From IMG/VR virus record IMGVR_UViG_3300048581_000044, positions 1 to 64,000 of that record: a DNA stretch of 64,000 bases. One strand, given 5' to 3'. The position numbers and the translations under genes were made by a program. The DNA is from a virus (lineage: Duplodnaviria; Caudoviricetes). The notes under the pieces were generated by a model, which saw only the letters and a list, made by a program, of their open reading frames with translations, was not told the origin of the DNA and did not search any database. Below, one piece after another: positions 1 through 43,005 of this stretch (the stretch's first letter is position 1; every line of letters begins with the position of its first letter).

Positions 1-876
1 GACCATACCCGAGCCCATGATGATAGCGCGAGTGACGAGATGGACCGTGGCGTCTACTTGGTCGGATGAGGCATCGTCGTTACCGGAGAAGTCTTTGAGT
101 TCCGTGCGCCATGCTTCGAGCCAGGGGGCATAGGTAGGGGAAAGGACGCGGTGCTGACGAAACCATCCTTGGACGGAACCGGCGGTTTTTAGCGTAACGC
201 TGTTAACTGCGCGAGCACCTTTGGAGGCGGTGGCGGGCATTGGGACGATTGGAATGCCTGAGGATTCTAGGGATTGGATAAGGGAAATGCCCGAGGCTTT
301 CTTTTCGATTAAGACCTCTTGCGGACGCCAGAGCTGGTAAAGGGTTTTGGCTGCGTTGACCAAACCGCCCCAATCGACACGACGGCGGAAGACATCTAGG
401 ATGAGCACGTCGAAATGATAATCACAAGGACCGACGATGGCGGGGTTTTCGCCACGATGGTAGGCTTGACAGGGGACGATTAAGGCCGTGACGCAGACGG
501 TGTGCGCGGCTTGGAGAGACGTGGAGAAAGCCGTGTCCCAAGCCTGAAGGACACAATGCCCTTGCGAGACAAAATCTCGGACGTAAGGGGACGGCATTCC
601 GAGAGCGAGTTCAGATGGAGAGAACTGAACGCCGCGGACGAGGCACTGATAAAAGGAATCAAGATCGTCGGCTAGGAAGATTGAGCCTTGGCGCGAGCCA
701 GGACGGCATTGATAAGTTGCCTCGAAGACATCGGGCGAGGAGCGTTTAATGATTAAGACTTCAGAGCGCTTTTGCTCGGACTCTGGCCAGTAAAAACCCA
801 TGCCTTTGGGATCAATGCCATAAGGCATTCGAACGCGATAGATGCGGCGAGGGGAGTCGTTGTGAGTGGAAGGCAT
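1..876 (-). CDS. terL: Terminase large subunit, C-terminal RNase H-like nuclease half (runs off the window edge; absent from the ORF track)
   Basis: Hand translation from ATG at 876 (RBS-like CAGGAAAG upstream) is open to position 1: MPSTHNDSPRRIYRVRMPYGIDPKGMGFYWPESEQKR...QAWDTAFS...VLIEKKASG...DDASSDQVDA. WDTA, IEKKASG and DxxDA are TerL nuclease motifs. Confidence 0.88.
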   Translation of the reverse strand, partial: MPSTHNDSPRRIYRVRMPYGIDPKGMGFYWPESEQKRSEVLIIKRSSPDVFEATYQCRPGSRQGSIFLADDLDSFYQCLVRGVQFSPSELALGMPSPYVRDFVSQGHCVLQAWDTAFSTSLQAAHTVCVTALIVPCQAYHRGENPAIVGPCDYHFDVLILDVFRRRVDWGGLVNAAKTLYQLWRPQEVLIEKKASGISLIQSLESSGIPIVPMPATASKGARAVNSVTLKTAGSVQGWFRQHRVLSPTYAPWLEAWRTELKDFSGNDDASSDQVDATVHLVTRAIIMGSGMV

Positions 877-901
877 TTACAGCTTTCCTGCTTGTCTGTT
901 G

Positions 902-1564
902 TCAAGCCTCAACATTTATAAGCTCTCCAGGACGATGAAGGACAAACTTGTGCTTGTAAAAGCTACCAACTTTTGTATGACCAAGTGCTAGCATTTCAGC
1001 TTTCACGCGATTTTTTGTAGCCTTCTGTGCGACTTGTTTTCCGTTTGCATCCAACCACCGAGGGTAAGGGCCTGTACGTCCTACGTACAACCAGTTAGCT
1101 GCACGATAAATCTGTCCAAAATGGTTTTGGCTTTCGTCTGCATAAGTGACAAGCGTTACAAAGCGATTGTCTGACCAAATGCGCCTAACAGAATGTGCTA
1201 ACAGAAAAGAGGCCGCGTTTTTTGGAACGTCCGGTAAGATAACCAGCCGTGTTAATGAAAGGACTTTCTTCCAGTTAAGCTTATTGACGCTCTCACAAGC
1301 GACACGCGTTGGTGGAAGCCACCACGCTACGCCCGCTAACTGCCCAGAGACACGATTGTATAGCCCATGCATATAGCAGCAAGTGTTGCTGCCTCCGTGT
1401 GCATAATGCCACTGCTTAACAAGCGCCTGACCTTCTTTTAGCGGTGCATCCGCAACAAGCCAGTCACGCTTTTGGAGCAGCAAGATCGGAATCGAACCGT
1501 CTTCCTTCTGTTGGACAACAGAAAGCTCTACCAATGAGCTATTGCTGCAAAGCCTCTTCAACAT
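902..1564 (-). CDS. mom: Mom-family (GNAT fold) adenine-modification enzyme
   Basis: Motifs WHY, LTRLVILPDVPKNAASFLL and VTYADESQNHFGQIYRAANW match the Mu Mom-like family. The start is uncertain (ATG 1564 or TTG 1483), and both overlap or precede the tRNA-like element. Confidence 0.8.
   Translation of the reverse strand: MLKRLCSNSSLVELSVVQQKEDGSIPILLLQKRDWLVADAPLKEGQALVKQWHYAHGGSNTCCYMHGLYNRVSGQLAGVAWWLPPTRVACESVNKLNWKKVLSLTRLVILPDVPKNAASFLLAHSVRRIWSDNRFVTLVTYADESQNHFGQIYRAANWLYVGRTGPYPRWLDANGKQVAQKATKNRVKAEMLALGHTKVGSFYKHKFVLHRPGELINVEA
1473..1548 (-). tRNA. tRNA-Gly-like cloverleaf with an 8-nt anticodon loop (UUGUCCAA) and a bulged T-stem; atypical tRNA or tRNA-like element
   Basis: Reverse complement reads GCAGCAA TA GCTC ATTGGTA GAGC T TTCTG TTGTCCAA CAGAA GGAA GACGG TTCGATT CCG(A)TC TTGCTGC T CCA: 7-bp acceptor stem, D arm, TTCGA loop, encoded CCA. 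U73 and G1-C72/C2-G71 are Gly-like identity elements. Confidence 0.85.
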
Positions 1565-1573
1565 TCAAACACC

Positions 1574-3259
1574 CTAGATAATGTCCCTCTCAGGCTCAGA
1601 GAAGATAAGCTTGGACTCTTCAGCAAGCGCGCTTTTTAACGCTTCTTCTGAAGGCTTTAACAATGCCTCATCCGAACCAACGTTCTCAAACCCAACAGCT
1701 TGAATCATCGAACGTGCGTCTTCGGACTTGGGGATGCCTAAACAGGCAGGATGCTCTCCACGCATCATTTCTGTAAAGACACATTCTAAGCCTTCGGGAA
1801 TCGTAACGTCCCAATACAGATAATCCGCCTTCTCGCGAATGTTAGGAAGCTCCATAACAACCCATTCGCCTGTGCGCTTGAGATGGCCATAGATGTCTTC
1901 ATCGTGCCAACGGCGGCCTGCAAAGATAAATCTCGCACCGCGCGGATCAGCGCGGCCTAAGATTTGAGAATAAAACGTATCGCGGACGCTTTTGCAGGCT
2001 TCAGCTGAGGAGGAGTTTTCCTTATCATGCAAGTCGTCCCCGATAATAATCCGCGCGTGAACGCCGGTTAGGCGCTTAGACGAAAGCCCAGCCGCAAGAT
2101 AAGAAGCATCAGGGTCGCCAGCCGCGTGCCCAGAGACAAACATCCCGCGCTCGGTGGACCAGCCACGGCCTTTGTCAGGGAGGACTTGCGGGAAAGCAGC
2201 TTTCCAGCCAGGAGCGTGTTCAACCCATTCCATAACCGCTGACATGAAGCCTTGCATAAGGGCTTCACCAGCCGAAATCCCGACGATGGTTGTGTCAGGG
2301 ACTTGGCCAAGCATGTAAGCAGGGAAGACAGTAGAGAGGAGCGCAGAGTTATGCGTGACGATGTTGTTTTCGATAACAAACAACCCAGCAGGATGATCGA
2401 TGTTGATGCAGACGGAAGGGGACTCGAATGCTTCCTGGTGAATAGACATGATCTCTAAGCTGGCGAGATCGTTGTATGTAGAGCTGCATTGCTGCACGTA
2501 CCATTTTACGCGATTGCCTCTTGGCGCATGTTTATAGAGGCAAATCTCCTCAGTCGTGCGAATGCGCCAGTCAAGGTCTACGTTTCCAAGCTTGAAGTCC
2601 TTATTATAGACCTTCCATAGGTGATTCCCATTGGCGCGGATTAAACAGCCATCGGCAAAGTTTAGACGGTAGAGGCGGCTTAAAGGCTGCTCGAACACGC
2701 CACGGACCTTAACCCAAGTCTTCCCGTCAGGGATCATCACGAAGTCAGATGTTGTAAGCGCCCCCATGCGAAGCCAACCGCGCTTGGTAAGGACTTTGGT
2801 ATCGGGGTGCAGGGCTTTGCCCGACCCTGGGCCGATTACGATTAGGAGCTTTTTGATACGAGGGTCAGAGAGGGCGAAGGCGGGGTATTGCAGGTGAGGC
2901 GGAAAGGAAAACCCACGTGCGTGATACATGAGGTTGTAGAAGGTGATTAAGCCGACCGCGTTATTAGGGATCGTGGAGGCAAGACGATACGTAGGGGCGT
3001 TGCGACCTTGGCTGATCGCGGGGGAAGCCACGCCGGGAGATAAGGCTTCGCCAGAACCATACGGAGAGGCGGCGGGGGAGGAGGCCGGGGGAGGAAGATC
3101 GTCTTCTAAACCGGAAGTTAGAAGCTTTTGACGCTCCTTTAAATCCCATTGTGCTTTGATGAAGTCAGGATCGCGTGAGCGGGGCGCAGCCTCGGAGTCG
3201 GGGCGGGCTTTGGGCGGCCGACCGCGTTTCTTTGGAAGGATTGGCAGGAGATCACGCAC
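1574..3259 (-). CDS. terL: Terminase large subunit, N-terminal ATPase half, intein-containing
   Basis: After intein removal Walker A reads IGPGSGK|S. Also Walker B IIIGDD and the coupling-motif region AGRRWHDED. The ORF stops before the nuclease domain. Confidence 0.9.
   Translation of the reverse strand: MRDLLPILPKKRGRPPKARPDSEAAPRSRDPDFIKAQWDLKERQKLLTSGLEDDLPPPASSPAASPYGSGEALSPGVASPAISQGRNAPTYRLASTIPNNAVGLITFYNLMYHARGFSFPPHLQYPAFALSDPRIKKLLIVIGPGSGKALHPDTKVLTKRGWLRMGALTTSDFVMIPDGKTWVKVRGVFEQPLSRLYRLNFADGCLIRANGNHLWKVYNKDFKLGNVDLDWRIRTTEEICLYKHAPRGNRVKWYVQQCSSTYNDLASLEIMSIHQEAFESPSVCINIDHPAGLFVIENNIVTHNSALLSTVFPAYMLGQVPDTTIVGISAGEALMQGFMSAVMEWVEHAPGWKAAFPQVLPDKGRGWSTERGMFVSGHAAGDPDASYLAAGLSSKRLTGVHARIIIGDDLHDKENSSSAEACKSVRDTFYSQILGRADPRGARFIFAGRRWHDEDIYGHLKRTGEWVVMELPNIREKADYLYWDVTIPEGLECVFTEMMRGEHPACLGIPKSEDARSMIQAVGFENVGSDEALLKPSEEALKSALAEESKLIFSEPERDII
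2348..2815 (-). mobile_element. 156-aa mini-intein with Ala1, class 3 (WCT) signature
   Basis: Starts ALHPDTKVLTKRGW immediately after GSGK and ends IVTHN|S. Block B H-L-W, block F SVCINID (Cys), block G Thr. No endonuclease motifs seen. Confidence 0.88.
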
Positions 3260-3738
3260 TATGAAACGTTCTCTTTCCAGTCTTCATCGACCTCAGCAAA
3301 GACCTCTGGCCCGAAAACAAGTTCCCCACGATAGGGAAGCTTTCCCGTTAGAGCAAGCTGATCGCCGTAATATGTGAGCGTAACGTGTGGGTGATAGTCG
3401 TCATAATCCCAAGACGCGCCTTTGTTGCAGAAGTCTATCCAGCGCAGCTCGAATTTGTTCGACGAAAAGAGCAGCACGACCGCGCCTTCGTCACCAAGTG
3501 GGGCGAGCTTTCTAACGCCATAGCCTTCAGGGATGATGACACGATTGCGTTTGGGCTTGAGATGACTCCAGTCGAACGCCTTTCGGCTGAAGGCCAAGGT
3601 AACGTGCATGTCGTCAGGAGAAAGCGGTTGCTCAAAGCCATTACGCTGTGCCCAAGCGAAGAGCGCTTTAGCGTTGAGAAGAGGACGGGAGACGTAGAGA
3701 GTTTTTGGACGGGCTTTTGCAAGCAGGGGCTTTTTCAT
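3259..3738 (-). CDS. 2H phosphoesterase, Acb1/T4 gp57B-like anti-CBASS nuclease
   Basis: Two HxT motifs (MHVTLAFS, PHVTLTY), plus TLYVSRPLLN and GASWD. ATG 3738 follows GGAGA. The stop TAG overlaps the terL GTG. Confidence 0.75.
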   Translation of the reverse strand: MKKPLLAKARPKTLYVSRPLLNAKALFAWAQRNGFEQPLSPDDMHVTLAFSRKAFDWSHLKPKRNRVIIPEGYGVRKLAPLGDEGAVVLLFSSNKFELRWIDFCNKGASWDYDDYHPHVTLTYYGDQLALTGKLPYRGELVFGPEVFAEVDEDWKENVS

Positions 3739-3739
3739 T

Positions 3740-4057
3740 TTAGTCTCCAGGACAGTGAACGCCTTCGGCACCGCTTTCAATTGCGTCTAGCGCAGCCTTA
3801 TCGAGCATCCGGTGGACAGGTGTGCTGCCGTCTTCTTCCTCTTGCGAGAGCGCACAGTCTATGGCTTGCGCAAAAACCAGCGGGTCAGTGACTTCGGGGT
3901 ATTCGAACTCGCCAGTTTCCTCGTTAAACAGCGAAAGGCTAGGATCAAACTCGATAGCGTGTGCGAGACAAGCAATGCCGATGGTGATTACAAGCCGTCC
4001 ACCAACGACTTGAACTTTAAGAGGCTCGTCTTCTGGCGAGAAGCTTACATCCAACAT
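3740..4057 (-). CDS. Hypothetical phage protein
   Basis: 105-aa acidic ORF tightly packed in the terminase operon. Confidence 0.6.
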   Translation of the reverse strand: MLDVSFSPEDEPLKVQVVGGRLVITIGIACLAHAIEFDPSLSLFNEETGEFEYPEVTDPLVFAQAIDCALSQEEEDGSTPVHRMLDKAALDAIESGAEGVHCPGD

Positions 4058-38115: not shown

Positions 38116-38487
38116 ATGAACATCCCACATGTCAAAATCGAGCGTCGTGTCTTCCACCCGATCAACGCCTGCCCTCCACCCTTCCCTCAAGCCCATCCGC
38201 TTGTGCATTTCATTTATGTCCAAATGCTCAACGAGCGGATGTCACGAGCCGAGGTAGCGCGTAGGGCAGGCTTAGCCGTCGCTACAATGATTTCTTGGTG
38301 GAAGGCGCCAAACAAAAAAGGAAAAGGCGGCATTGCGATCCAAAATCTCGAAGCCGCCCTTGGCGTGTTTGGTTACGCTTTAAAACCCACCCCGCTCCAA
38401 GATCAAACCATCGCTCCGCCTAAGCGCAAGCGCAAAACCGGTCCTCAAAAGAATTTCACGCTTATCCCTTTGGAGAAGCTTCCTTGA
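38116..38487 (+). CDS. XRE-type HTH protein
   Basis: MSRAEVARRAGLAVATMISWW...NLEAALGVFG. Confidence 0.7.
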   Translation: MNIPHVKIERRVFHPINACPPPFPQAHPLVHFIYVQMLNERMSRAEVARRAGLAVATMISWWKAPNKKGKGGIAIQNLEAALGVFGYALKPTPLQDQTIAPPKRKRKTGPQKNFTLIPLEKLP

Positions 38488-40250
38488 CAACCGAATACGA
38501 AGACGGCTCAGACGATGCGCCTATTTGTCTCTTGGGAGAAGCACCGTCTTTTGTCGAGATGAAAGAGCACAAGCCCTTTGTCGGCCCGGCTGGTGAAATC
38601 CTCGAACGTTGTATGCACTCAGCTGGAATCCCTCGACGTAACTGTCGAATCCTAAACGTCTTCGAAACCCCAATCGTCAAGCCGAAAATCTCCAAAGGCA
38701 AAATCTTCAACCGTGACGGGGAGCTTCTCTGGGCTCCTGGCAAAGGCTTTACCGAAGCAGGCCACGCTGCCACAGCTTCCTCTCTCATGCGCCTTCGTCG
38801 CACGACTTCTAACGTTATCGTCCCTATGGGTGGGGTTGCCTTAACCCTCGCTCTCGAAGCGCGTTCGATTACAAAATGGCGTGGCTCAATTATCCCAGGC
38901 GGTGAGCAAATCAACCACCGCAAGATTGTCCCTACAATCCACCCTTCTGCTGTCCTGCAAGGCAAATATGAATACCGCTATCTCATTATCAACGACCTCA
39001 AGCGCGCCAAGCGTGAGAGCGCTTATCCTGACATCCGCCCGATCAAGCGCAATTTAATCATCGATCCCACTTATGAGCAGTGCATTTCTTTTCTCGAAAA
39101 ATGTCTAGACGCCAAGCTTGTCAACACCGACATTGAGCTTCTTCATGGGCACATGGATTGCTTCTCTCTCGCTATCGATCCCTTAGAAGCCATCTCAATC
39201 CCAATCGTCGATGCGACGTTTGAAAGCCGCTGGAGCCCAGAAGAAGAGCTTAAAATCTTCCAACTCTACGCTCAGATCATCGGCGCACCCCATATTGCTA
39301 AGGTTAACCAAAACATCACCTTCGATTTAGCGACTCTCCTTCAGCTTTACAGAATCGTCCCTCGTGGTGTTGTCCATGATCCTATGGTCGCACATTCGAT
39401 TATGTATACGACTTTGGATAAAAGCCTGGGGCTGATTTGTTCTATGCACGCCGAAGAGCCTTATTACAAGGACGACGGGCAGCTTCACGACTCCCCAACC
39501 GTGGCGGATTTTACCCGTCGCTGGGAATACAATGCGAAAGACTCTGCGATCTCGTTAGAAAGCTGGCTTGCCTTAGAACCCTCTATCGATCCAGAAGGCT
39601 ATCGTGCTACCTACGACATGACGATAAACGTTGTTTCATCGCTTATTTACATGATGGCGCATGGGATTCCTGTTAACGCTAAGGCTCTGATCGCTACACG
39701 CGAGGAAGCAAACGCACAACTAATCGCAATTGTTGAGCGCTTGAGAAAGAGCTTTAACCGACCGATTCTCACAGAGGCCCCTAAACGTGCGGCTGATAAG
39801 CGTGCGGCTATTGCGGCTAACGCTATCAACATCAACTCTCCCGCACAGCTTTGCGCTTATTTCTATGGTGAAAAAGGCTTGCGTCCTTATAAAAACATGG
39901 CAGGCGCCCCAACTGTTGATGACAAGGCACTCACGCGAATCGCTTCACGCTTCAGCTTGGAAGAAGCTCGAACACTCCAAGAATATCGCAAGATCGATAA
40001 GATCATCTCGACTTATTTGAACGTCCGCTATGACGTGGATGGAAAGCTAAGAAGCTCGTTTAATATCCGGGGAGCTTGGACAGGGCGGTTAAGTTCGTCG
40101 CAGACTGTGTTTGAGACAGGCTTGAACTTCCAAAACCTCCCGATTGTGTTCCGGCAATTTATGGAGGGGGAGGGTGTTGAGGCACATCCGCATTTGGAAG
40201 AAATTATGAAAATCCCTGAAAGCCAACTCGAATGGAATCCCGAACCATGA
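38484..40250 (+). CDS. polA: Family A DNA polymerase N-terminal half: UDG-like domain + 3'-5' exonuclease + thumb
   Basis: UDG: GEAPS, FVGPAG, HPS. Exo: NTDIE, NQNITFD, YNAKD. Ends GRLSSS...NFQNLP before motif A. Confidence 0.9.
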   Translation: MTTEYEDGSDDAPICLLGEAPSFVEMKEHKPFVGPAGEILERCMHSAGIPRRNCRILNVFETPIVKPKISKGKIFNRDGELLWAPGKGFTEAGHAATASSLMRLRRTTSNVIVPMGGVALTLALEARSITKWRGSIIPGGEQINHRKIVPTIHPSAVLQGKYEYRYLIINDLKRAKRESAYPDIRPIKRNLIIDPTYEQCISFLEKCLDAKLVNTDIELLHGHMDCFSLAIDPLEAISIPIVDATFESRWSPEEELKIFQLYAQIIGAPHIAKVNQNITFDLATLLQLYRIVPRGVVHDPMVAHSIMYTTLDKSLGLICSMHAEEPYYKDDGQLHDSPTVADFTRRWEYNAKDSAISLESWLALEPSIDPEGYRATYDMTINVVSSLIYMMAHGIPVNAKALIATREEANAQLIAIVERLRKSFNRPILTEAPKRAADKRAAIAANAININSPAQLCAYFYGEKGLRPYKNMAGAPTVDDKALTRIASRFSLEEARTLQEYRKIDKIISTYLNVRYDVDGKLRSSFNIRGAWTGRLSSSQTVFETGLNFQNLPIVFRQFMEGEGVEAHPHLEEIMKIPESQLEWNPEP

Positions 40251-40534
40251 AAACCTTTCTTATCTCTGCCCTAACTTGCTTCCCAAGCTTCAACTCCCCT
40301 ACCGAAGATATGGGCCATCGTGCAGCAATCGTTGCAGCAAATTCGCAACAAGAAGCTATCGGGATTTTTGTGCTGGATGCTTTTAAAAGCAGCCCCTGTG
40401 CAATCACTGATGTGAACGCTTCCGAGCTTGGGGATGACGGTGTTCCGGGCTTTAAGCGCGTTGTGGAAGAAGTTATGAAGCCTATCCCCCTTGAAGACGC
40501 GCATGGAGAGCTGCCAGCCGAAAGCCATTCCTAA
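40247..40534 (+). CDS. Small hypothetical protein inside the split polymerase
   Basis: ATGA overlap with the Pol-N stop; TAATG overlap with the next gene. Confidence 0.6.
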   Translation: MKTFLISALTCFPSFNSPTEDMGHRAAIVAANSQQEAIGIFVLDAFKSSPCAITDVNASELGDDGVPGFKRVVEEVMKPIPLEDAHGELPAESHS

Positions 40535-41112
40535 TGCACGACACAGCGCGCGAACTCGGCAAGCTCTTCCTCAGCCTCTACCATTCCCCCTCTTGTACAA
40601 CCATCCTCGACTTTGGCGCCATGAACATCAACGGCACCTTGCGCGACTACTGCCCACCCGGCGTGACCTATCTTGGCGTTGATCTCTCCCCCGGCCCGGA
40701 CGTTGATCTAACGCTCGACGCCTTCAATTCCCTCCGCTACCCTTCCACCCGCTACGACCTCATCCTCGCAACTTCCGTCTTTGAGCACGACGCCCTTTTC
40801 TGGAACACCTTTACCGAACTCTGTTCCCTCCTCTCGCTCCAGGGCGCCCTTTATCTCAACGTCCCCTCAGACGGCAAAGTCCACCGCCACCCGCTTGACT
40901 GCTGGCGCTTCTACCCTGACGCGGGCTTGGCGCTTCAGCGTTGGAGCGTGCTTGCAGGCTGTCCTGTGAGGCTTATTGAGAGCTTTGTTGCGAATCAAGG
41001 AGGCGAGGGCTGGAGCGATTTTGTTGCTGTCTTTTCCCCTAGCGCGCTGATGCCTAGATTGGCGAACGCTTATGGCATGAGAAATCTAACACATTACCAA
41101 ACTGGACAATGA
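40534..41112 (+). CDS. Class I SAM-dependent methyltransferase (type-11/sugar-cluster-like)
   Basis: ILDFGAMNINGTLR, GVDL..GPDVD, SVFEH, HRHPLDCWRFYPD. Confidence 0.85.
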   Translation: MHDTARELGKLFLSLYHSPSCTTILDFGAMNINGTLRDYCPPGVTYLGVDLSPGPDVDLTLDAFNSLRYPSTRYDLILATSVFEHDALFWNTFTELCSLLSLQGALYLNVPSDGKVHRHPLDCWRFYPDAGLALQRWSVLAGCPVRLIESFVANQGGEGWSDFVAVFSPSALMPRLANAYGMRNLTHYQTGQ

Positions 41113-41115
41113 TTC

Positions 41116-43005
41116 ATGCTTCTTAACTTTGACCTTTCGGGTGCCGAGTGGAACGTGGTCGCTTATCTTTCCCAAGACCCAGGGATGCAAGCTGTTGTGC
41201 GCTCTGGGAAGTCTCCCCACATTGTCACGGGGGCCAAGATCAGCGGGCTACCTGAAGACGTTGTAAAGAAAGAAGCGTCAATTATCGGCGACCTGAATGA
41301 CCCAATTCATATCTCAGAGCTTCGGCAGACAGAGCTTAAAGGACTTTTGGACGGTGCTAAGTTCCTGCCGCGCACGATGTCTATTCGTCAAGCCGGTAAG
41401 AAGTGCCTTGTAGCTGGAACAGAAGTTCTCACACCTGAAGGTTGGGTAAAGATAGAGGATGTAAAGCAAGGCGATAAAGTCCTACAATGGGATGCTGGAG
41501 AGCTTAGCTTTGTAGAGACAAGCGCTATTTATAAATATGCTCTAGCTCCAGCTGAGGAGCTTATAGCTTTAAAAGGCCGACATTTTAGCCAGACTGTGAC
41601 AGCAAACCACCGCTTGCCACTAAAGCATTTGAAAAAATACTTCTTCGAAGAATGTACCGCCGCCACACTGCCTGAAAACTGTACGTATGGCATACCGTTA
41701 TCTGGAAACCTAAACAATAAAACAAGCCTATTAAACGCCTACGAGACACGCTTACTTGTCGCTATTCAAGCAGACGGCGTTATCAACCCCTACGGACAGG
41801 TAGTGTTCAAATTTGCAAAGGAAAGAAAACGCGATAGGCTTGATAGTATTTTAAGCGCTCTCGGAATCAGCGTAACGATCACTAAGGGAAACCAGTTTCA
41901 CATCCCACGCGGTCCTATAATTGACAAGCTTGTGAAGTTGCTAACAGGTGGTTTTGTCTACGAACGTCAGGAACGCCACGCTGTAAAAACCCTTCGTCAT
42001 GGAGCGCTTTTAAAAAATTACGGCCTTTATCTTTTACAGCTTGGTATTACAGAACTACAAGCTTTTGTTAATGAGCAACAATTCTGGGACGGGCACAACC
42101 GAAATGGTGGTGCTTGCTTTCAGGCTTTTACGACAAACAAGAACAACGCTGACTGGATACAGACCATAAGTCATCTGTGTGGGTGTCGTTGTACTTTAAT
42201 AAGTCGCGAACCAACTGGGGGATTTGGAAAAAAGACTCTTCATTGGTTGAGCATTGGAAAGGCTGACACTACCACAACCTCAGTGCTAAAACGTAGTAGC
42301 GTAAAGGCCGATAGCGTTTACTGTTTGACAGTTCCAAGTGGATTCTTCATGGTTAGATATGAAAGTATCATAAGTATAAGCGGTAATAGCAATCACTCGC
42401 TGAACTACAGACTTGGTTATCGAACATTCGCACAGCGCAATGAAATGGATGAAAAGGAAGCGCAAAAGATCGTAAATCTATACCGCGGTGAACGCATCGG
42501 GTCAACTATCCGCGGTGGTGCCTACCCCGAGCTAAATCACTGGTACGACCGGATCGATGAGCAAATCCGCAAGACCCGTACCATGACAAACTGCTTTGGG
42601 CGGAAGATGTATTTCATGGGCCAAATGGGCGATGATCTCTTTCGAGAAGCCACCGCGGCCGTCCCGCAGTCAACCGTCGTGGATATCACCAATCGTGCGA
42701 TGCCTTTGATGCTTAATGACAGCTCTCCAGCTTTTGAGCCTGCGAAATTGCTCGCACAGGTTCACGATTCAACACTTATCGATTATGTCTCGATGGAATT
42801 TCACGCCATGGCGCGGTTTGTTATAAAAATGGGACTCGATTATCTTAGCCCAACGCTCGATTATGGCGAGCCTTTTAAGCTTGGCGTTGATCTTAAAGCG
42901 GGTGTTAATTGGGGCGAGAGTATGAAAAAGATAGACATGACTCCTGATGAAGATGTCATGGCTGAACGCTTAAAACTATGTTGGAAAGCTTTTAGCCTCA
43001 TGTGA
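41116..43005 (+). CDS. polA: Family A DNA polymerase C-terminal half (motifs A, B, C), intein-containing
   Basis: Motif A NFDLSGAE; spliced motif B RQAGKK|SNHSLNY; motif C QVHDS. Confidence 0.92.
   Translation: MLLNFDLSGAEWNVVAYLSQDPGMQAVVRSGKSPHIVTGAKISGLPEDVVKKEASIIGDLNDPIHISELRQTELKGLLDGAKFLPRTMSIRQAGKKCLVAGTEVLTPEGWVKIEDVKQGDKVLQWDAGELSFVETSAIYKYALAPAEELIALKGRHFSQTVTANHRLPLKHLKKYFFEECTAATLPENCTYGIPLSGNLNNKTSLLNAYETRLLVAIQADGVINPYGQVVFKFAKERKRDRLDSILSALGISVTITKGNQFHIPRGPIIDKLVKLLTGGFVYERQERHAVKTLRHGALLKNYGLYLLQLGITELQAFVNEQQFWDGHNRNGGACFQAFTTNKNNADWIQTISHLCGCRCTLISREPTGGFGKKTLHWLSIGKADTTTTSVLKRSSVKADSVYCLTVPSGFFMVRYESIISISGNSNHSLNYRLGYRTFAQRNEMDEKEAQKIVNLYRGERIGSTIRGGAYPELNHWYDRIDEQIRKTRTMTNCFGRKMYFMGQMGDDLFREATAAVPQSTVVDITNRAMPLMLNDSSPAFEPAKLLAQVHDSTLIDYVSMEFHAMARFVIKMGLDYLSPTLDYGEPFKLGVDLKAGVNWGESMKKIDMTPDEDVMAERLKLCWKAFSLM
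41404..42387 (+). mobile_element. 328-aa intein with LAGLIDADG homing endonuclease
   Basis: CLVAGTEVLTPEG...VTANH...LLVAIQADG...FWDG...YCLTVPSGFFMVR...ISGN|S. Confidence 0.9.

Follow-up and report, generated by a model that had tools for sequence, protein, structure and literature searches.

Organization of the terminase locus

The window analyzed here is a 64,000-nucleotide stretch of DNA, the first 64 kb of an 89,137-bp IMG/VR virus record (IMGVR_UViG_3300048581_000044) from an uncultured phage found in peat metagenomes. At its start lies the locus of the large terminase subunit (TerL), where two open reading frames (ORFs), referred to as the N-half and C-half genes, are separated by a gene of the Mom family. 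Both ORFs are called terminase large subunit by PHROG and Pfam, the first as the ATPase part and the last as the nuclease part. The features of the locus are listed below; relatives of the phage are denoted by our own labels (such as L031).

1574..3259, minus strand: TerL N-half gene, 561 residues (phrog_38, Walker motifs)
2348..2815, minus strand: predicted mini-intein of 156 residues within the N-half (boundaries from intein-free relatives; motifs)
1577..1768, minus strand: C-terminal tail of the N-half, residues 498-561, 64 residues (comparison with L031 and L020)
1565-1573, minus strand: 9-nt spacer between the N-half and Mom genes (sequence)
902..1564, minus strand: Mom-family gene, an ORF of 220 residues, the cargo between the TerL halves (PF25680, phrog_1384)
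1473..1548, minus strand: tRNA-like element inside the Mom ORF (Rfam, ARAGORN)
877..901, minus strand: 25-nt spacer with AGGAAAG, the ribosome-binding site of the C-half gene (sequence)
1..876, minus strand: TerL C-half gene, first 292 of 389 residues (PF17289, PHROG), the remainder lying at the far end of the record
3259..3780, minus strand: Acb1-like (anti-CBASS) gene, directly upstream of the TerL N-half

The N-half gene begins at a GTG that overlaps the stop codon of the Acb1-like gene (TAGTG) and ends at a TAG at 1576-1574, and the C-half gene opens with its own ATG at 876. A first-pass annotation, made by a model from the letters and ORFs alone, had given these gene boundaries, both spacers, and the ATG at 876 with its own ribosome-binding site, and all of them match exactly. 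TerL is not encoded as a single polypeptide here: the frame stops at 1574-1576 and a new start follows at 876, as is also the case in the 15 relatives checked in genomic context. The final 97 C-half residues lie at the other end of the record (L002 5000..4707, equal to G000:C1:88844-89137), with the portal gene next to them. Since the contig ends join into an intact ORF, the record is a circular permutation and the gene is whole; the joined C-half protein, 373 residues long, is on record as P0007.

Other contigs confirm that the two-gene arrangement in this phage is genuine. A 31.9-kb contig from one run, possibly the source sample, crosses window position 1. A contig from an independent peat study covers 1263-1851 with zero differences, bridging Mom, spacer, tail, and ATPase core, and a 151-nt contig from a metatranscriptome library covers 797-947, bridging Mom, spacer, and the start of the C-half. 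A search of the contigs covering the stretch revealed no skipped joints; runs X4, X5, and X6 cover it in short pieces only, so this search is limited to the covered parts.

Composition of the two halves

The N-half is made up of a basic, proline-rich N-terminal extension, a RecA-like ATPase core, and the 64-residue tail. Its Walker A (GPGSGK|S, interrupted by the intein), Walker B (GDDLHD), and GRRW motifs are invariant in 10 N-halves, and with Walker A, Walker B, and a coupling motif present and a match to phrog_38 at E 6e-32, the protein has the features of a TerL P-loop ATPase. The predicted mini-intein, at 2815..2348, had escaped the first-pass annotation. It is inserted after the Walker A lysine, within the P-loop, and displays Ala1, NHLW (with Trp at block B:12), SVCINI (with Cys at block F:4), and THN followed by Ser+1. 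With blocks assigned by eye, these residues fit a class-3-type signature, which we take to be a non-nucleophilic residue 1, a Trp(B:12)–Cys(F:4)–Thr(G:5) triad, and HN at the C terminus followed by a nucleophile at +1. L003 carries an intein at the same P-loop site that bears LAGLIDADG, and the 752-residue N-half on the P0018 contig gives weak homing-endonuclease matches; L004, L005, and L007 have no intein in the P-loop.

The tail begins after the conserved C.F(T/N)(E/D) that ends the last strand of the N-half. It had been described as divergent looking, a description that does not hold up: the tail is native to the sub-lineage, and in the closest relative, L031, it is conserved from its start (TEM.RGE.P..LGI) to the final RDII before the stop codon. 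L020 shares approximately the first 30 residues, and in other relatives the N-half tail is 1 to 50 residues long.

The C-half encodes the last ATPase strand (YGIDP..GFYWP), the lid helices (FEATYQCRPG region), the whole RNase H-like nuclease, and a C-terminal Cys4 motif. The nuclease motifs AWDT, the glutamate of IEKKASG, and DQVDA are invariant in 29 C-halves, and the PF17289 match (26.7 bits against a cut-off of 22.6) identifies the RNase H-like nuclease of TerL. That the catalytic residues are invariant in both halves of the split forms argues that both halves are in use. The last ≈50 residues contain four invariant cysteines (C..C, C, C) in 29 of 29 aligned C-halves (P0007 residues ≈325-360), probably a zinc-binding tail judging from this pattern.

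Position of the break and predicted fit of the halves

A sequence search of the Protein Data Bank was too weak for mapping the break, and structure comparison was used instead. We modeled an unsplit relative, L005 (654 residues), with AlphaFold (predicted local distance difference test score, pLDDT, 88). Its best solved match is 8dgc_E, the TerL of phage PhiV-1 as bound by Avs3 (Z 24.1, 449 residues aligned), with a root-mean-square deviation (RMSD) of 16.6 Å, high because the two domains are placed differently relative to each other. ATPase domains of known structure align to model residues 20-331 (P74-26: Z 19.0, RMSD 2.6 Å, 217 aligned; T4 gp17: Z 18.8), and solved nuclease domains align from residue 331-333 onward (G20c: Z 16.2). 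The break maps between the model strands at 243-252 and 281-290, a region with pLDDT >95. With the domain boundary at ≈331, the natural break therefore lies ≈55 residues upstream of it, inside the ATPase domain. The first-pass annotation had described separate ATPase and nuclease genes, with FYWPES (C-half residues 28-33) as the inter-domain region. The two genes stand, although the C-half gene also carries the last ATPase strand and the lid, and according to the L005 model and the solved structures FYWPES falls within the ATPase domain.

We predicted the heterodimer, using alignments, for the halves of the intein-free relative L020 as a stand-in for the window chains. The L020 halves scored an ipSAE of 0.80 against 0.39 for the best control, a mark that 58 of 80 solved complexes and 2 of 110 mismatched pairs also reached. 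The runs agree in at least 87% of contacts, with a partner pLDDT of at least 67. In the predicted complex, residues 298-304 of the N-half pair antiparallel with residues 18-27 of the C-half, and C-half residues 41-68 contact P-loop residues 115-120. Since one-chain TerL structures have already been solved, this score may reflect those known structures; the prediction shows that the halves look like a cut TerL and is not proof of binding.

Distribution of the split among relatives

The two-gene form extends well beyond this phage. With the C-half of L003 as the query and proteins of 214-683 residues allowed, we obtained 165 matches at E ≤1e-10; among the best 120 of these, 114 are 273-414 residues long (stand-alone) and six are 617-670 residues long (fused). 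A profile search of representatives at 50% identity returned 63 proteins at E ≤1e-30, whose near-full matches comprise ≈20 stand-alone forms, 22 fused forms, and 5 with intermediate N-terminal extensions; at E ≤1e-10 the family numbers roughly 2000 members. On a FastTree phylogeny of 124 C-half regions, the window falls in a clade of 54 rows that are all split (support 99), and fused forms occur at 3-4 places on the tree. One fused group (L011 3061-5106, P0105, P0113, and P0116) branches within the split forms, and its linker exceeds those of L005 and other fused forms by ≈40 residues, a pattern that would fit re-fusion of two ORFs.

Two distant TerLs, sharing 23-27% identity with that of the window (L018, 2239-3491; L019, 6771-8007), are also encoded by two overlapping ORFs with an equivalent break, the overlap being ATGA in L018 and 20 nt in L019; comparison of these sequences suggests that the TerL site was cut more than once.

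A tblastn search against 50,697 GenBank phages returned distant relatives only (≤36% identity over partial matches), so no cultured relative is known; the one match inspected, DSL-LC04, has a single TerL of 489 residues. Three relatives lie in metagenome-assembled genomes labeled Acidiphilium, Alphaproteobacteria, and Pseudomonadota. Because the binning of phage contigs is weak evidence, we claim no host.

Variable cargo between the halves

The 15 split relatives seen in context share the break and differ in what fills it: seven have no cargo, and in the other eight unrelated inserts of 0.3-5.9 kb occupy this position. The cargo-free relatives are L003 (TAATG overlap), L008 (ATGA overlap), and L020, L022, L025, L029, and the P0018 contig, in which the halves overlap or are separated by a spacer of at most 10 nt. 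The cargo-bearing relatives include L006, L007, L021, L023, L024, L031, and L032. The 3.1-kb gap of L006 holds a gene resembling S-adenosylmethionine-dependent methyltransferases, GT9-like and GT34-like glycosyltransferase genes, and a SLOG-family gene. That of L007 (5.9 kb, partly on the opposite strand) holds genes for a 571-residue DUF4214 protein and for methyltransferases along with GP88-like, CxxCxxCC, and GT9-like genes. L021 has an N6_N4 DNA methyltransferase and a small ORF, L023 four ORFs without assigned function, and L024 a DnaJ-domain protein and three unknowns. The closest relatives, L031 and L032 (C-halves 70 and 66% identical), have a small ORF of ≈100 residues in the gap, not Mom.

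A family of such small ORFs (≈90-125 residues, 30-35% identical) recurs in the gaps of L021 (7711-8001), L023 (5607-5945), L031 (308-685), and L032 (2-265), with no such ORF in the window. Its position is immediately before the C-half in L021, L031, and L032 and after the N-half in L023; the two members scanned, from L021 and L023, have no Pfam match.

The order of the flanking genes is steadier than the gap, with the Acb1-like gene upstream of the N-half and the C-half followed by the portal and a GT2 protein of ≈1270 residues. The Acb1-like gene occurs upstream of the N-half in the window and in four relatives; it adjoins the N-half directly in the window, L021, L022, and L025, and in L024 it lies one gene off, behind an N6_N4 methyltransferase.

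The cargo of the window belongs to the Mom family by its matches to PF25680 (96.4 bits against a cut-off of 27.1) and phrog_1384 (E 6e-31). A search of IMG/VR found only one close relative of it, L026 (65% identity), which lies outside any TerL gap. Direct or inverted repeats flanking the Mom cassette were not found beyond chance-length matches, so the cassette has no transposon-like signature. Relatives are split without Mom and the closest ones carry other cargo, which places the split first and the cargo traffic after it. On this comparison, the split predates Mom and was not caused by it, and Mom is a recent passenger in a pre-existing gap. The suggestion that the split makes mom hard to lose finds no support in the seven cargo-free relatives of 15 or in the different ORF carried by L031 and L032.

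Within the first 30 codons of the Mom ORF lies the tRNA-like element (1473-1548, minus strand). Rfam matches it as a tRNA at 1548..1477 (31.8 bits against a cut-off of 29), and ARAGORN also finds it. Its acceptor stem has 7 bp (G1:C72, C2:G71), the D and T loops are canonical, the U73-CCA end is encoded, and the anticodon loop, UUGUCCAA (UCC plus an extra G), has 8 nt; the two acceptor pairs, U73-CCA, and the anticodon loop presumably resemble features of tRNA-Gly. Between the element and the conserved Mom core no start codon occurs in frame, and translation of Mom must therefore begin inside or before the element. The Mom relative L026 lacks the tRNA. In phage Mu, Mom draws glycine from Gly-tRNA-Gly (PMC13219725).

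The genes all share one strand, and gaps of 9 and 25 nt separate Mom from the TerL halves, a layout that makes co-transcription of Mom with the late packaging genes plausible. The two Mom-flanking spacers contain no promoter-like or terminator-like sites. The promoter scan did not outperform shuffled sequence, and the single terminator-like match in the cassette, a weak one at 1540..1524, is the D-arm of the tRNA-like element. Late expression would suit Mom: its target is post-replicative double-stranded DNA, and Mu produces it late (PMC13219725).

A probable two-chain terminase and its alternatives

We consider it very probable that the large terminase of this phage is made from two cistrons, broken inside the ATPase domain, with a gap that collects accessory genes. 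This agrees with the two-chain TerL proposed in the first-pass annotation, and we see nothing that points to splicing across the gap, whether of RNA or of protein. The N-half would supply the RecA-like ATPase core, becoming active only once the P-loop intein splices out, and the C-half would supply the final β-strand, the ATPase lid, and the whole nuclease domain. A single TerL protomer most likely results, in which antiparallel pairing would join the final strand of the N-half to the initial strand of the C-half. The lid would cover the P-loop, giving an ATP site to which both chains contribute. The split, old and clade-wide, opened an intergenic junction inside an essential late operon, where accessory genes are repeatedly gained and exchanged: Mom in the window and, in relatives, DNA methyltransferase, methyltransferase-like, glycosyltransferase, and DnaJ-domain genes and the small ORF.

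Several points weigh against this interpretation. The N-half depends on the splicing of a predicted intein, and in cargo-free relatives low-level frameshifting may give a fused chain. Both the structure and the complex prediction draw on TerL folds already known as single chains, and the complex was computed with the chains of L020 (73% identity to the window in the N-core and 61% in the C-half) in place of the window chains. The 151-nt RNA-library contig could be carried-over DNA, which makes it weak evidence against splicing. Finally, 15 split relatives were checked in genomic context, and the remaining split calls are drawn from called protein length.

A more elaborate form of the two-cistron reading would make the two-chain terminase a working design instead of a tolerated accident. 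Docking of the lid and nuclease would complete the ATP site, the supply of the C-half would set the motor, and the gap would be a protected late-expression slot for DNA-modification or counter-defence genes; Mom would come with its own tRNA-Gly-like glycine carrier, and separation of the chains would weaken Avs recognition. We regard this as unlikely.

Quite improbable, too, is the idea that the split was selected for locking in counter-defence cargo or for hiding TerL from Avs-type sensors. DNA-modification genes do occupy the gap in at least two lineages (Mom in the window, the N6_N4 methyltransferase in L021), the Acb1-like gene at or near the N-half in several relatives shows that the neighborhood holds counter-defence genes, and the nearest among solved folds is that of a TerL in complex with Avs3. 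However, about half of the split relatives are cargo free, cargo differs even between the closest relatives, and the predicted heterodimer rebuilds the ordinary TerL fold. KpAvs2, moreover, is predicted to bind the ATPase domain alone (PMC11564622), so continuity of the chain is not obviously needed. None of our results favors escape from Avs sensing.

A single TerL chain made after removal of the Mom cassette from the RNA, whether as a group I or group II intron or by some other route, is highly improbable. Group I introns do commonly interrupt TerL genes in other phages, such as the Jug phages (PMC12880540), and the GC content of the cassette, 45-50%, is lower than the 55-58% of the flanking TerL halves. 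Yet an Rfam 15 scan of positions 1-4000 at E ≤10 returned no group I or group II intron model, its only match being the tRNA; the first-pass annotation had seen no group I intron core either. Other relatives carry 3-6 kb of cargo, opposite-strand genes included, and the overlapping stop and start codons at the same break in relatives such as L003 (C-half 65% identical) could not accommodate an intron. Both halves start from codons of their own, and the C-half has a dedicated ribosome-binding site. The tail of the N-half is conserved as protein in L031, and the RNA-library contig spans the Mom/C-half junction unspliced, with no joints seen.

Joining of the halves by recoding (frameshifting or bypassing) or by split-intein trans-splicing is extremely unlikely. 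The terminase of Streptomyces phage Hau3 is read across gaps of 7-10 nt by bypassing (PMC10732093), and the ORFs of the cargo-free relatives overlap in the −1/+2 register, but the gap in the window measures 0.7 kb and holds a gene. The N-termini of the C-halves lack an HN-Cys/Ser/Thr junction; together with N-half tails of only 1-4 residues in L004 and L007, this excludes a split intein.

An assembly chimera or a decaying, nonfunctional terminase is scarcely credible: the record is a linear metagenome assembly with the C-half cut at its end, but the 31.9-kb contig runs through position 1, the contig of the other study is identical over 1263-1851, the record ends rejoin as an intact ORF (P0007), the catalytic motifs are intact in both halves, and the same architecture recurs in >100 protein clusters from many samples.

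Comparison with other interrupted terminases

The herpesvirus terminase protein pUL15 is encoded by two exons placed around other genes and joined by mRNA splicing into one protein. Terminase coding is likewise separated by unrelated genes in the phage studied here, and the exon splicing sets pUL15 apart. The one-chain TerLs of PhiV-1 (8dgc), D6E, P74-26/G20c, and T4 (gp17) share the fold and motifs of the split protein and the gene position beside the portal. Unlike them, the window has two genes, with the break ≈55 residues before the ATPase/nuclease boundary, and the lid and last strand of the ATPase go with the nuclease. In Jug phages, group I introns and homing endonucleases likewise leave TerL as coding pieces with foreign genes between them (PMC12880540), whereas in the window no intron RNA was found, the cistrons are independent, and relatives have an insert-free, overlapping break. 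The TerL of cyanophage Mic1 contains an intein (PMC7156551), as does the window N-half in its P-loop, although here the intein is an additional interruption, putatively removed at the protein level, and does not bridge the gene split. Hau3 shows that a phage with a broken ORF for its essential terminase can be viable (PMC10732093), but there the ribosome hops over 7-10 nt and makes one chain, in contrast to a 0.7-kb gap with a gene.

In a limited literature search, we found TerL in pieces only through introns, inteins, or bypassing, and never as two cistrons; within that search, we could not find a description of an old, widespread two-gene TerL with an accessory-gene gap. TerL is a standard marker for finding and classifying tailed phages and judging their completeness, and an extensive environmental clade whose TerL genes are half-size and can lie 6 kb apart will be mis-annotated or called "broken." A natural break in the ATPase domain tells which pieces of the packaging motor can come in trans, and a TerL already split in this way is well suited to work on the function of the lid and on how the motor assembles. 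The variable gap, in an essential late operon near a conserved Acb1-like gene and with anti-restriction genes (Mom, DNA methyltransferase) among its contents, is also a place to seek new counter-defence genes.

Other interrupted genes of the phage

The portal protein has 945 residues (L002 1873-4710, minus strand, equal to G000:C1:86010-88847), ≈370 more than in relatives, most of which have portals of 555-704 residues. The insert, which starts at CHRADTEVLTKEGW and ends ..SGN|S, is intein-like. On the P0018 contig, the portal has 959 residues and a faint LAGLIDADG match.

The family A DNA polymerase is also encoded by two ORFs (window 38484-43005, plus strand). ORF 1 contains uracil-DNA glycosylase and exonuclease domains and PolA profile positions 16-133, and ORF 2 contains PolA positions 214-381 with a Hint domain. 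Between the two lie an ORF of 100 residues and a methyltransferase-like gene, making the polymerase a second essential gene in pieces with cargo.

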